DNA from: Promethearchaeota archaeon
GTDB lineage: Archaea; Asgardarchaeota; Lokiarchaeia; Sigyniarchaeales; SOKP01
Direction: 5' to 3'
Length of the DNA: 64,000 nt
Assembly (NCBI GenBank): GCA_019057795.1
Contig: JAHLWS010000049.1
Location: forward strand, 90,696 to 154,695
The translations under genes and the position numbers were made by a program. Under the pieces are notes generated by a model that made no database searches, was not told the DNA's origin, and saw only the letters and a program-made list of their open reading frames with translations. Below, piece after piece: positions 38,918 to 43,565 of the stretch; position 1 is the stretch's first letter, and each line of letters opens with the position of its first letter.

Positions 38918-39773
38918 AGATAAAAATAAGGAAAACATCACAAGTGTTATATTATGTGCCGGTGAAGGCACTCGTGTTAGAGATATTGCGAAACACATTC
39001 CAAAGCCACTGATTAAAATCAAATCTTTAAACAATCAAACTATTCTTTCGCATTTGATTTCTAGTTTAATCAATTTAGAGATTGAACCAATTGTAGTGGT
39101 AACAGGTCATTTAGGCGAGCAAATTGAAGATTTTGTAGTTTCATACCAAATAAATAATAAATTAAAAAAAAAGAAAATATTAGTAAATCGCTCTGGAGTT
39201 CAATATAAATTAGGTCCATTACATTCCTTTCTAAGCATTACAGGAAATAACCAAATATATAAAGAGAATAAAGTTTTTATGATCTTTCCGGGAGATACTA
39301 TTTTTGATTACAATCTTTTGCAAGAAGCTTTGAACCTTTTATTAAAAAATTATAGTCTACTTGATAACTGTTCAATTATTTTTTACAGAAAGATAAAAAT
39401 TAGCTCGCTAAAAGAAAGATTTAAAACACACGATCCTAACTTGTTCAAAACAATATCCTATTTAAAAATAAATAGAAACGGATCAAAATCAATTGTCAGA
39501 GAGATCAAACAGAGAATTTTAAGCTCTTTAATAAATAAAAAAACAATCCTTCAAGTTATACCCATTTTTATTTTCAGTTTTAGGATAGTTCAAGAAATTA
39601 AAAATTTAGCAAATTGTAATAGATTAAAAACAATTAGAGAAATTGTTAATTTAATAATTAAGAAAGAAGAAATATTTTTAGCCCTTTCTATTGATCCTGA
39701 ATATAATTTTTGTGATATTGATTCTCCCATTGATTTAAGGATCTTAAATGAAAAAAAAAAAGATGGACAATAG
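38892..39773 (+). CDS. Nucleotidyltransferase (NTP_transferase family)
   Basis: ILCAGEGTRV, IPKPLI, PGD, DIDSPID. Confidence 0.8.
   Translation: MENLLLQHKDKNKENITSVILCAGEGTRVRDIAKHIPKPLIKIKSLNNQTILSHLISSLINLEIEPIVVVTGHLGEQIEDFVVSYQINNKLKKKKILVNRSGVQYKLGPLHSFLSITGNNQIYKENKVFMIFPGDTIFDYNLLQEALNLLLKNYSLLDNCSIIFYRKIKISSLKERFKTHDPNLFKTISYLKINRNGSKSIVREIKQRILSSLINKKTILQVIPIFIFSFRIVQEIKNLANCNRLKTIREIVNLIIKKEEIFLALSIDPEYNFCDIDSPIDLRILNEKKKDGQ
39751..39761 (-). terminator. U11 tract immediately downstream of the putative ncRNA
   Basis: A11 on the plus strand next to the terminal stem. Confidence 0.55.
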
Positions 39774-40276
39774 TAGCTCCGATATTCTAGTATTCTTGTT
39801 TCAAAGGAAATGCGTCTTTTACTCCATTGAATCGAATCTTAAATCAAAGCTCCTATTGTAAGACTTTATAGCTTTTATTGAAAGATATTAATGTTTGGAT
39901 GTCTCGTGTAGCATATATATCAAAAAAATTGTTTAATTCGACAAGAGATCAGGCAAGAGTGTCAACTTGCACCATAACTAATATCAATTTTAAACTGATT
40001 GCTATATCTCTATTATTACATTATTGCTCCAAAGTGCTAATTTATTAGGAATGGGATATACTTAGTCTAAATTAATTTTCCTGTGATTTAGTATAACGCA
40101 CTAAAGGAACGTGATAAAATAAATCCGCGTGGAAACCAAGTCATAAGCATTAACTCTGGGCGTACCAAAAAAAATCCAGAACTTAAGAATCTACTATCAA
40201 TTTTGCAACAACAAGCTGGTTGTTTCAATTGTAATGATGTATTCTAAACCAATGCATATATTATTACTATTGTCCA
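39764..40276 (-). ncRNA. Putative ~513-nt structured non-coding RNA (RNase P/MRP-like or novel)
   Basis: Perfect 12-bp terminal inverted repeat TGGACAATAGTA (39764-39775) / TACTATTGTCCA (40265-40276), multiple internal hairpins, no ORF in the track, flanking TATA box and U-tract. Confidence 0.65.
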
Positions 40277-40298
40277 ACAATATACATCACAATAAGAC

Positions 40299-40306
40299 TA
40301 TTTAAA
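40299..40306 (-). promoter_or_regulatory. TATA box (TTTAAATA) for the putative ncRNA
   Basis: Ends 22 nt upstream of the terminal-stem 5' end, consistent with archaeal spacing. Confidence 0.5.
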
Positions 40307-40421
40307 TGTTATTATTAAATTAATTTCTAATTTACTCTTTTAGTAATAGAAAGTTTAATAAATCCGAAAGTTAACATTCCAGATAAGATTAATTACAGTA
40401 AATACTAATTATTGAGCGTTT

Positions 40422-40811
40422 ATGTCTGATAGCGGAATAATATCCATAAAAATTGATCTCTTCGGGATTGGGAGCGTATCTGCAAATATAATTCGACATT
40501 ATGCCCCCTTCTCTGCCGACGCTATTCTAAATAAGATGCCCTTTGTTCTAAAAGGTCGATTTAGTTTTGGAGCAAAAACCTATTGGACGCTTCCAGGTTT
40601 GGAATTATATAAAGGCCATAATTCGAAATCAATTAAAGTCGTTGAAAAAGGAGATATTATATATAACCCAAAAACTGATGAATTGATAATCCTTATAGAA
40701 AGTACAGAAATGCCAAACAAAATAAATAAGATTGGAAAAGTTACGGAAAATATAGAATTTTTTCTCCAAGCTAGAAATGGCTTAGGGACTAAACTCTCCA
40801 GAGTGAAATAG
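40422..40811 (+). CDS. Cyclophilin-like fold protein (DUF369/DUF3830-like)
   Basis: AP.SADAILNKMP, VEKGDIIY, INKIGKV. Confidence 0.6.
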   Translation: MSDSGIISIKIDLFGIGSVSANIIRHYAPFSADAILNKMPFVLKGRFSFGAKTYWTLPGLELYKGHNSKSIKVVEKGDIIYNPKTDELIILIESTEMPNKINKIGKVTENIEFFLQARNGLGTKLSRVK

Positions 40812-40828: not shown

Positions 40829-41629
40829 ATGGCTATCTCGAATAAATTAACTGTTGTTTTCACTTTTTTCTACTTAGGGGTTATTATCTATTTGATCTTA
40901 TTCTTAACAGTTCCAGAGATTCAACAAGCAATAATTCTGTCAAGGCACGATATTACTGGACTTACAGACGGTTCCAATTATATCATAGCACTCTTAATCT
41001 CTTTTTTTATTTGTCTTATAGGAAACGCTAGTATAGGGTTTCCTATACCATATCCCTTTATTCTTTTTTCTTTTTCTAATTCAATTTATCTTAAATATTC
41101 AATTGCAGGGTTGACCTTGAGTGAAGTACTGATAAATGGTCCTTTTTGGTTAGAAATACTAGGAATCGCTGTTGTTGGCGGGTTGGGGAGCGCACTAGGC
41201 GAACTTGTAGGCTTCTTGATAGGAATTGGCGCAAAAAAAATTGCTAATAAAACTCACTCAAAAACACTTGCAAATATACAAGGATTCGGTAAGCTGGTAT
41301 TAGATCGCCCTAAATCCATGCATTTATACATATTTATTGCCGCAGCCCTGCCAATTCCCGACGACCCTCTGTGGATCGCTTTAGGAATGTCAGATAAAAA
41401 AATAAATTTCTCTAGGTGCATTATATGGGCCTGGGCAGGAAAGAATATCACCACTCTATTCTATGTAATTTTCCCTTTATTAATTTTACTTGGATTTAGT
41501 GCTACTGGAATTGAACTTAATGATATCTCAAGCGTAATAACAGAATCTATAATGTTATTAATTACTCTAGCAATTATGCAATTCATTCTGCAATTTAATT
41601 GGGATAAATATCTTGATAAAGGAAGTTAG
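40829..41629 (+). CDS. DedA/VTT-like membrane protein
   Basis: GLGSALGELVGF.IG and AAALPIPDD. Confidence 0.7.
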   Translation: MAISNKLTVVFTFFYLGVIIYLILFLTVPEIQQAIILSRHDITGLTDGSNYIIALLISFFICLIGNASIGFPIPYPFILFSFSNSIYLKYSIAGLTLSEVLINGPFWLEILGIAVVGGLGSALGELVGFLIGIGAKKIANKTHSKTLANIQGFGKLVLDRPKSMHLYIFIAAALPIPDDPLWIALGMSDKKINFSRCIIWAWAGKNITTLFYVIFPLLILLGFSATGIELNDISSVITESIMLLITLAIMQFILQFNWDKYLDKGS

Positions 41630-42344: not shown

Positions 42345-43565
42345 TCAAATATTAAATTCTGAACGAGAATTAAGATCATCTAATATCTTTTTATATTCAG
42401 AACTTCTTTCCTCAAAGTGTTCAATTATTTTCCTTTCATCTGTATCTAAATAATCAAATAGAGGAGAAATAATTTCAATACGCTTAGTAAACTCGTTCAT
42501 TAGTTTTTTATGCCATTCATTCGGCTTGGCTAGCATTGCTTTAATTTTTTTTTTAAATTTATCTTTCTTTTGTTCAACATCTTTCATTTGATTAGTTTTC
42601 TTTATCTTAATTAGACTATTTTCGCATTTTCTAAATTCTTTTTCTATTTTTTCTCTAAATTTAGGGATTCTATAAATTTTTTTGTCAATATCAGGATCCC
42701 ATTCGTATAAATAATAGTCATCCTCTTCAGCTTCTTTTTCGTCATCAGTTAATTTAATCTCTTTTTTCAAGACCATAATGAGACCAAAGTTTCTCTGGAG
42801 TTGAGCCAAATACCTTCGTCGTAAAATATCATCAATATACTTAACTTCCTTTAAAACATTTTTCATGTTTTTAAAAATTTTTTTAACTTCTTTTTCAGCG
42901 TTTTTTACCATTTTTTCTTTACTTAATTCAAATTTTAGTTCTATAGTATTAGAATAAGTAGCAAACATTCCGCGATCGGGGTTCTTTAGCCTTATTCCCG
43001 CAATTCCTAAGTAATAAGTACTAGACGCAATTTCAGTATGATCAAACACTAAAGCTATAGCAAAAGGATTTACACCTTGATAAAAAAGTTGCGTTTCAAT
43101 GTCTCTAGGCGAGAATATAAAGCCAATACCAGGGTGTGTATGCCACCACCCTACAAAGAAGTCTTCTTTATTATCTTGGATAGATCTTTCATAGACTGCC
43201 GTGTTAAATTGTGCTGTATCTACATAATGTTTGCTTTTATATTCAACATAGGCTCTATCACCAACCATCACGGGGATTGCATCTTTAATGATAACTTCTT
43301 TATTATCTTTTATCGAGCCTATTAGAATTCCATAAACTTCACGCCAAGCTTTTTGAGGTAAATCCTTATTTCCATATCGCATTGCGTAGCCAATAATTCG
43401 CCTATATGCGTTATATGAAATAAAAGTAGGAGTTTCCGCCGGATCTATACCATTTTTTTGAATATGATGTTCTTTTGTTGATAATTCAATAATATTATCT
43501 GATTTAGAAGTTAATTTTTCATCATCTTCTTTATCGATTTTGTTTTGTTCTCTTCCGCTCATCAA
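42345..43565 (-). CDS. JAB1/MPN (JAMM) metalloprotease with coiled-coil C-terminus
   Basis: EVYGILIG and VGWWHTHPGIGFIFSPRD, an intact HxH-x7-S-x2-D motif. Confidence 0.85.
   Translation of the reverse strand: MMSGREQNKIDKEDDEKLTSKSDNIIELSTKEHHIQKNGIDPAETPTFISYNAYRRIIGYAMRYGNKDLPQKAWREVYGILIGSIKDNKEVIIKDAIPVMVGDRAYVEYKSKHYVDTAQFNTAVYERSIQDNKEDFFVGWWHTHPGIGFIFSPRDIETQLFYQGVNPFAIALVFDHTEIASSTYYLGIAGIRLKNPDRGMFATYSNTIELKFELSKEKMVKNAEKEVKKIFKNMKNVLKEVKYIDDILRRRYLAQLQRNFGLIMVLKKEIKLTDDEKEAEEDDYYLYEWDPDIDKKIYRIPKFREKIEKEFRKCENSLIKIKKTNQMKDVEQKKDKFKKKIKAMLAKPNEWHKKLMNEFTKRIEIISPLFDYLDTDERKIIEHFEERSSEYKKILDDLNSRSEFNI

Follow-up and report, generated by a model that had tools for sequence, protein, structure and literature searches.

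Evidence for a new family of large, abundant non-coding RNA with paired ends in one family of Lokiarchaeia

Introduction

No known lineage stands closer to eukaryotes than the Asgard archaea, whose RNA beyond ribosomal RNA, transfer RNA (tRNA), RNase P RNA and signal recognition particle (SRP) RNA is, to our knowledge, almost unexplored. Large conserved orphan RNAs such as OLE, GOLLD and ROOL are, as far as we know, rare even in bacteria, and we know of none in Asgard archaea. Here we describe an element of about 0.5 kb in a 64,000-nucleotide (nt) stretch of a Lokiarchaeial genome (Promethearchaeota archaeon, GenBank assembly GCA_019057795.1, contig JAHLWS010000049.1, positions 90,696–154,695; this whole stretch is hereafter the window). 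The element occupies positions 39751–40306 on the minus strand and is almost certainly a stand-alone non-coding RNA (ncRNA) gene with a canonical archaeal promoter, composed of a TFB-recognition element (BRE) and a TATA box, and an oligo-U terminator.

Several described RNAs are natural points of comparison. Archaeal RNase P RNA (RF00373) and RNase MRP RNA are likewise stand-alone, abundant RNAs of several hundred nucleotides with paired ends, a TATA promoter and a U-run, but the RNA described here has a G+C content of 31% rather than 43.5%, is confined to one family, lacks the CR-I and CR-V motifs and has no supported P4 pseudoknot. Y RNAs of the Ro60 ribonucleoprotein (RNP) and other scaffold RNAs with locked ends (vault RNA, 6S RNA and 7SK RNA) share with it a terminal stem that is conserved in sequence and not just in pairing, a variable interior, a U-rich 3′ tail and abundance, a combination typical of RNAs in which the closed end acts as a platform for protein binding. 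Unlike these RNAs, ours has no Rfam match and does not form the rod with a central bubble that marks 6S RNA; it is also 4–5 times longer than Y RNAs, and the genome yielded no TROVE/Ro60 gene. OLE, GOLLD, ROOL and raiA-motif RNA resemble it as large, conserved, highly expressed and lineage-limited ncRNAs of unknown function that were found by comparative genomics. The present RNA differs from them in being archaeal, in showing no sequence or structure similarity to them (Rfam), in its much weaker covariation and G+C content, and in having no link to phages, tRNAs or dedicated partner genes. Finally, the trans-acting small RNAs (sRNAs) of Methanosarcina, Haloferax and Sulfolobus are, like this RNA, independent intergenic units with a TATA box, an oligo-U terminator and a possible single-stranded seed, whereas the RNA here is several-fold longer, has a multi-domain core and locked ends, and leaves no target signature in the genome.

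We did not find this RNA described in Rfam 15 or in the literature searched. At two to three orders of magnitude above the neighbouring mRNAs, this single-copy RNA of about 0.5 kb is likely to have a central cellular role, and a near-invariant core kept at one locus across some 130 species-level genomes likewise points to such a role. The sequence, a structure model and the species range are now defined, and a tempting assignment to RNase P/MRP is corrected. Should the RNA be only a lineage-specific regulatory sRNA, it would be of moderate interest.

A conserved RNA gene on the minus strand

A reading of the window from sequence alone (hereafter the sequence-only reading) had proposed that an RNA gene missing from the annotation, equipped with a promoter and a terminator, lies on the minus strand; it had noted a span free of open reading frames (ORFs) that is bracketed by a perfect 12-bp inverted repeat, with a promoter signal on one side and a U-run on the other. 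All of these signals are present on the minus strand (Table 1): the 5′ arm UGGACAAUAGUA is perfectly complementary to the 3′ arm UACUAUUGUCCA, the TATA box TTTAAATA ends 22 nt ahead of the 5′ arm, and UC followed by U11 lies directly 3′ of the 3′ arm. The exact 12-mer of the arms occurs only at these two sites in the 64-kb window, and the gap holds no ORF longer than 56 amino acids (aa). By itself, the 12-bp inverted repeat is not beyond chance in this AT-rich window, in which we counted 47 pairs of inverted repeats of at least 12 nt with arms at most 700 nt apart. Minimum-free-energy z-scores are significant on neither strand (−0.48 on the minus and −1.24 on the plus strand), so folding energy by itself gives no support for an RNA. 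The G+C content of the RNA equals the genome average, at 31%, against 43.5% for the RNase P RNA and 45% for the SRP RNA of the same genome. A single sequence is therefore insufficient, and the features of the locus gain significance from conservation, covariation and expression.

BLAST searches within the genus recovered the element from 23 of the 24 other genomes at 66–93% identity, with the ends most conserved. All 23 extracted copies carry a ATTTAAATA box 22–23 nt ahead of an invariant UUGGACAAUAGU, and the genus copies end with the invariant UCGGRGCURCUAUUGUCCA followed by a U-run. Promoter, arms and terminator hold fixed positions across the 24 genomes of the genus. The family was then extended by a filtered scan with a 3′ pattern, by a pattern combining the TATA box with the arm and, in pattern-negative genera, by inspection of the sequence upstream of the cyclophilin-like gene. 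These searches yielded 53 extracted homologues from genera g1, g14, g15, g16, g17, g19, g20, g21, g22 and g23, all of one GTDB family; a profile match suggests that g12 has the RNA too. The homologues are 352–576 nt long and differ by gain and loss of whole hairpins. In all 53, the TATA box lies 22–23 nt from the GGAYA arm (28 nt in GAAAA-extended forms), and the full signature (TATA, about 22 nt, GGAYAAUAG, CAUUGG, CUAUURUCC and a U-run) was found in the syntenic slot. The gene proposed by the sequence-only reading, with its promoter and terminator, is thus kept across the 53 homologues. The predicted primary transcript would be about 514–520 nt here and about 350–580 nt in relatives, as judged from these signals.

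The RNA lies between a convergent sugar-nucleotidyltransferase gene and a divergent cyclophilin-like gene. Gene order is alike in 39 of 39 compared loci: the genes for Asp/Asn-tRNA synthetase, methionine aminopeptidase and the sugar nucleotidyltransferase are followed by the oppositely oriented RNA, after which come the cyclophilin-like gene and a 266-aa ORF. The exception is g15, in which the RNA is displaced by about 9 kb. The source genome (4.95 Mb, 100% complete) holds a single copy. R1, a sequence profile built from the 92 nt at the 5′ end, matches 21 of 25 sampled genomes of the family and gave only marginal scores (E 0.002–0.007) in 126 genomes of the phylum’s other families, whose cyclophilin-like genes have no upstream intergenic gap. 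Among viral contigs there were nine pattern matches, each lacking a U-run or a 5′ arm, and these were unrelated sequences. As far as sequence detects, the range is one GTDB family of Lokiarchaeia, and the RNA gene is vertically inherited. Second matches to the 3′ pattern in other genomes were considered as paralogues and rejected, being coding sequence (GATIVH peptide motif). In one genome, G014, there are two full-length RNA loci on different contigs (C57:2856–3394 and C117:483–1019), each with 72–73% identity to the window; the assembly is about 9% contaminated, and the two copies may represent two strains rather than a duplication.

High RNA abundance in a metatranscriptome

Expression was assessed in one metatranscriptome, X19, from Logan contigs, of which 41 fall on a 4-kb stretch around the locus and which carry no strand or end information. 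The RNA is very abundant in this sample. Summed word depth is 10,045–44,272 over 39876–40277 (contigs at 39913–40265), compared with 35 over the adjacent cyclophilin-like gene and ORF, and depth steps at the predicted start from 1.65 in the bin 40278–40411 to 10,045 in the bin 40144–40277. The 41 contigs differ in their likeness to the window, which indicates that several strains are present. No X19 contig covers 39742–39875, where the 3′ domain lies, or the 12-nt 5′ arm. The hole over the 3′ domain is most likely technical, because X18, which is probably a DNA run, also has no cover over 39608–39875, and it does not count in favour of a shorter RNA. One X19 contig with a depth of 4,680 skips 31 nt at 40037–40069, within the variable central part of the RNA. 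The contig may come from a related strain with a natural deletion, which would fit the gain and loss of hairpins between species.

A covarying terminal helix

The ends of the RNA are closed by helix P1, which was found in all 53 homologues with a length of 10–17 bp. In anchored counts over these homologues, positions 0–9 are 93% paired, as against 33–42% in a slid register, and the type of pair changes repeatedly: position 3 is C–G in 43, U–G in 4, G–C in 2 and U–A in 1, position 9 is U–A in 30, A–U in 9 and G–C in 9, and at position 0 a G–C pair becomes A–U in one genus. The U–G wobbles seen in P1 and the 3′ hairpin are compatible only with an RNA from the minus strand. Because pair types change and the wobbles are strand-specific, both the strand and the reality of P1 are settled, and we regard the helix as proven. 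The conservation that the sequence-only reading had suggested testing at syntenic intervals in relatives is accordingly there, with compensatory changes in P1 across genera.

In L051 and L060–L064 the 5′ arm no longer contains AUAG, and pairing there is between a 5′ GAAAA and the beginning of the U-run. At the g22 loci L051, L060–L062 and L064, GAAAA pairs with the first U residues past the 3′ arm (UGUCCUUUUC), the helix having slid outward into the terminator. A conformational switch, in which the 3′ arm would pair with the internal look-alike ACAAUAG, was considered and dropped: the available internal partners are no better than those in shuffled interiors (z within about ±1). The stability of P1 is −13 to −18 kcal/mol, compared with −6 to −10 kcal/mol for pairing with the look-alike.

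Interior hairpins and conserved blocks

Consensus folding with alifold was run independently on five subgroups and recovered the same interior modules. The long interrupted hairpin at 40186–40245 that had been read from the window (P2) is present, and relatives retain it with a different sequence; its subgroup versions are CAAUU/AAUUG, GGUC/GACC and AGUC/GACU, with CGGU/ACCG in g22. P3 has an equivalent in g22, UGUGA/UCACA with a U-rich loop. Both strands of P4 are conserved in g1 and g22, and AGUGC/GCACU is replaced by AAUGC/GCAUU in L027. The hairpin read at 39953–39970 (P5) was recovered in subgroup A, whereas one read at 40087–40105 is specific to the source genome and conflicts with the conserved long-range helix. 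In the genus alignment, interior helices are paired in 69% of cells versus 35–47% in slid registers, with a covariation score above all 500 shuffles, and P2–P4 are moderately supported. The family-wide alifold of the 5′ 92 nt returned no consensus pairs, because hairpin positions shift.

The 3′ domain is 80% paired, compared with 36–52% when slid, and its architecture was predicted independently in subgroups A–D. The helix that closes it, AGCUUUGAU/AUCGGAGCU, abuts P1 on the 3′ strand and reaches 93% pairing in g1; tandem U–G pairs within this helix are kept in 38 of 40 and 33 of 40 sequences. The 3′ hairpin is thus supported by conserved pairing potential. Between P5 and this domain, the blocks UGAUCUCUUGUCGA and UACACGAGACA are near-invariant in g1, g19, g21 and g22 and are paired in 92% of cells, with an ambiguous pairing register. 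The U7 run between them (39922–39928) is not conserved beyond g1, whereas a U-rich stretch near RNA nt 100–115 is kept across genera.

Near the 5′ end, a CAUUGG-like motif, GCAUUGGUUU, starts at about RNA nt 15–25 in 51 of the 53 homologues. No consistent internal partner for it emerged (mean z −0.05 against shuffles), and it is therefore probably exposed. Within each RNA, the short words CAUUG, AAUAG and GGAGC are repeated far above the level in shuffled sequences; 11 of 24 RNAs, for example, contain GGAGC two or more times, with 0.1 expected. Repeated binding sites or an ancient internal duplication could account for this.

Comparison with known RNA families

The 4227 families of Rfam 15 were scanned against the whole window at gathering score and against 39600–40500 at E up to 10. 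There was no gathering-score match in the window, and the permissive scan of the region returned two noise matches only. The models that the sequence-only reading had named (RNase P, MRP, SRP, OLE, GOLLD and ROOL) thus give nothing meaningful. OLE, GOLLD, ROOL and HEARO have no match at E up to 10, archaeal SRP RNA (RF01857) none in the window, and RNase MRP RNA (RF00030) no covariance-model match in the window or in the permissive region scan. ARAGORN found no tRNA or transfer-messenger RNA. For guide sRNAs, no Rfam small nucleolar RNA match rose above noise (SNORD105, 15 bits, opposite strand), and inspection of the alignments by eye, with no formal K-turn search, found no conserved C/D box pair or H/ACA pocket. 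Y RNAs have no Rfam match here; the RNA is 350–580 nt long and its P1 has no conserved bulge. Ro60/TROVE (PF05731) was not found in the complete source genome, although control genomes were matched; a search for a La partner was uninformative, its controls being unmatched as well.

These comparisons bear on the proposal that the RNA is a divergent RNase P/MRP-like RNA with a P1–P3–P4 pseudoknot. Its ends are indeed closed by a P1-like helix, and AGUUCUGG and UCGGAGCU are complementary in the window and can pair in 76% of cells in the genus (23–46% when slid). The complementarity stands; as a helix it does no better than shuffles, with no compensatory change and 500 of 500 shuffles as good. Both strands are better paired locally, in UCUGG/CCAGA and AGCUUUGAU/AUCGGAGCU, which are 86% paired, have four pairs with compensatory change and reach a covariation score attained by 4 of 500 shuffles; moreover, AGCUUUGAU/AUCGGAGCU is kept in g22, in which the equivalent of AGUUCUGG is absent. 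The RNA contains neither CR-I nor CR-V, and RF00373 has no match in 39600–40500 at E up to 10. A canonical rnpB, whose presence elsewhere had been raised as a check, does exist in the genome: G000:C56:30912–31235 matches archaeal RNase P RNA with 123.5 bits over model positions 1–288, that is, at full length. Because the pseudoknot is unsupported, Rfam gives no match and a canonical RNase P RNA lies elsewhere, the RNase P/MRP reading is removed and its probability is next to negligible. The other possibility that had been offered, an undescribed large Asgard ncRNA, is the one supported, as the RNA lies outside Rfam 15.

A full-length SRP RNA match lies elsewhere in the genome, at G000:C38:38134–38446 (locus L034). 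It covers the full model length with 54 bits, against a gathering score of 96.5, and may be a divergent Lokiarchaeial form that standard annotation would miss.

A candidate RNP scaffold and its alternatives

We consider that the RNA represents a new family of stable, abundant ncRNA with a locked-end core and variable expansion hairpins, which would scaffold a lineage-specific RNP, and we put the probability of this reading at a little over one half. That the locus is a real new ncRNA gene is, taken separately, very probable; the RNP-scaffold mechanism specifically is offered tentatively, at somewhat less than an even chance. Under this proposal the RNA would be a stable molecule working in trans, and its most probable role would be to scaffold an RNP particular to this lineage. 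Its recognition platform would consist of P1 (GGACAAUAG/CUAUUGUCC), the unpaired GCAUUGGUUU, the UCUUGU/GAGACA blocks and the 3′ hairpin with its tandem U–G pairs, and the middle hairpins, whose number and size vary by species, would be dispensable expansions. A more ambitious version, which we regard as distinctly improbable, would make the RNA the core subunit of a lineage-specific Asgard RNP machine, either a 7SK-, Y- or vault-like regulatory scaffold or a new ribozyme; the terminal helix, GCAUUGGUUU and the tandem-U–G 3′ hairpin might then form the active or binding core.

Several observations weigh against the scaffold proposal. The proteins encoded next to it, namely a sugar-1-phosphate nucleotidyltransferase, a protein resembling cyclophilin and a membrane protein of VTT/DedA-like type, offer no clue to the RNA. 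The strand and ends of the transcript come from sequence signals, the contigs being strandless. Double changes in the interior helices are found in similar numbers in slid controls, and covariation within the 3′ domain is weak, because its sequence barely varies. G+C content (31%) and folding z-score (−0.48) are ordinary, and much of the RNA may therefore be loosely structured. The two internal U-runs are possible archaeal terminators, hence shorter isoforms are possible.

That last point leads to an alternative in which the transcript is a precursor or exists as two isoforms: termination at the U-runs (40167–40174 and 39922–39928) or endonucleases would yield shorter mature RNAs, with P1 and the 3′ domain serving mainly as a module that controls processing or termination. 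Oligo-U runs are described as archaeal termination signals (PMC7515710, PMC8716108). The conservation of the U-rich stretch near nt 100–115 across genera would fit, and one contig runs past 39913 into what we read as its own upstream sequence in reverse complement, a loose end. An X19 contig, however, crosses the first U-run (39950–40222), the second U-run is conserved in g1 only, and the covariation of P1 requires the full-length molecule, so that we hold this alternative to be improbable. A trans-acting antisense regulator, in which GCAUUGGUUU or the UCUUGU/GAGACA blocks would be the seed for mRNAs or other RNAs and the remainder would stabilize the molecule, is unlikely, if not to be dismissed lightly. 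Archaea are well known to possess sRNAs that carry a TATA box and a U-run terminator of their own, the RNA is abundant, and the motif is kept in 51 of 53 homologues without a consistent internal partner. On the other side, the genome shows no over-representation of the seed complement AACCAATG (200 occurrences versus 182 expected), nor any excess of it at gene starts, blocks distant from the motif are equally invariant, and 350–580 nt with a conserved multi-helix core is far above the size of a typical archaeal sRNA.

Near-invariant internal blocks beyond the needs of pairing could also form the catalytic or sensing core of a new large ribozyme or ligand-binding RNA. Tandem U–G pairs, conserved here, are a common metal-binding motif, and the size is comparable to that of bacterial orphan RNAs; low G+C content, weak predicted stability, few covarying tertiary-type pairs, the lack of a supported pseudoknot and the narrow phyletic range make this very unlikely. 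There is hardly any probability left for the reading that no RNA is made, and that the locus is a DNA-level element (a remnant of a miniature inverted-repeat transposable element (MITE) or insertion sequence (IS), a replication origin or a looped operator) or conceals a gene for a small protein. Terminal inverted repeats do flank an AT-rich, ORF-poor 0.5 kb, and such repeats are common by chance, but the massive RNA depth, the strand-specific G–U wobbles and compensatory changes, and the absence of a viral-contig copy all speak against it. The MITE/IS remnant is rejected because the element is single-copy in 4.95 Mb, at one syntenic position across the compared genera except for g15 (about 9 kb away). 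No conserved ORF was found in the RNA, the frames breaking even between relatives with 90% identity.

Features of the locus and neighbouring genes

Table 1 Features of the RNA gene in window coordinates
Feature	Positions	Strand	Evidence
BRE/TATA promoter, AAUAACA-TTTAAATA (TATA box 40299–40306)	40299–40313	minus	TTTAWATA and purine-rich upstream element in 53/53 homologues
Predicted transcription start	40275–40277	minus	Fixed TATA spacing; metatranscriptome depth step
P1, 5′ strand UGGACAAUAGUA	40265–40276	minus	Pairs with 39764–39775
Conserved motif GCAUUGGUUU, probably single-stranded	40246–40255	minus	CAUUGG-like in 51/53 homologues
P2, long interrupted hairpin	40186–40245	minus	Predicted independently in sequence-divergent subgroups
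P3, hairpin UCUGG/CCAGA, U8 loop (40167–40174)	40155–40180	minus	Compensatory change in 4/5 pairs within genus
P4, long-range helix GUUCC..GUGC (40098–40110) and GCAC..GGAGC (40026–40037), enclosing a variable insert	40026–40110	minus	
P5, hairpin GCAAG/CUUGC	39953–39970	minus	alifold, subgroup A; 4/5 pairs changed on both sides
Blocks UGAUCUCUUGUCGA (39938–39951) and UACACGAGACA (39900–39910), pairing possible, flanking a U7 run (39922–39928)	39900–39951	minus	
3′ hairpin domain: ACAAUAG and AGCUUUGAU (39843–39851) with AUCGGAGCU (39775–39783), then UUCA/UGAA and GGAG/UUCC	39775–39859	minus	
P1, 3′ strand UACUAUUGUCCA	39764–39775	minus	As 5′ strand
Oligo-U terminator, UC and U11	39751–39763	minus	U-rich run after the 3′ arm in all homologues

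At its 3′ end the RNA gene overlaps the nucleotidyltransferase gene. The last codons of the latter (...EKKKDGQ*), at 39751–39773, are the complement of the U-run and the 3′ arm of P1, and a tail-to-tail overlap of about 14–23 nt recurs in many of the compared loci, where the same bases encode a protein C terminus, an RNA helix and a terminator. A second perfect inverted repeat, TTAATTTAATAAT/ATTATTAAATTAA (13 bp; 39646–39658 and 40311–40323), encloses the RNA gene together with its promoter; it consists of A and T only and is probably due to chance.

Two nearby proteins deserve mention. The 266-aa ORF (40829–41629), located 3′ of the cyclophilin-like gene, has no sequence match in Pfam, NCBIfam or the PDB, and language-model features liken it to VTT/DedA (‘SNARE-associated Golgi protein’) membrane proteins with scores of 0.90–0.92. 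Further along, a 406-aa protein encoded on the minus strand (42345–43565) combines an N-terminal JAB1/MPN domain of the deubiquitinase type with a faint C-terminal match to the eukaryotic coiled-coil family CREPT, and it may be a eukaryote-like component of a ubiquitin system.

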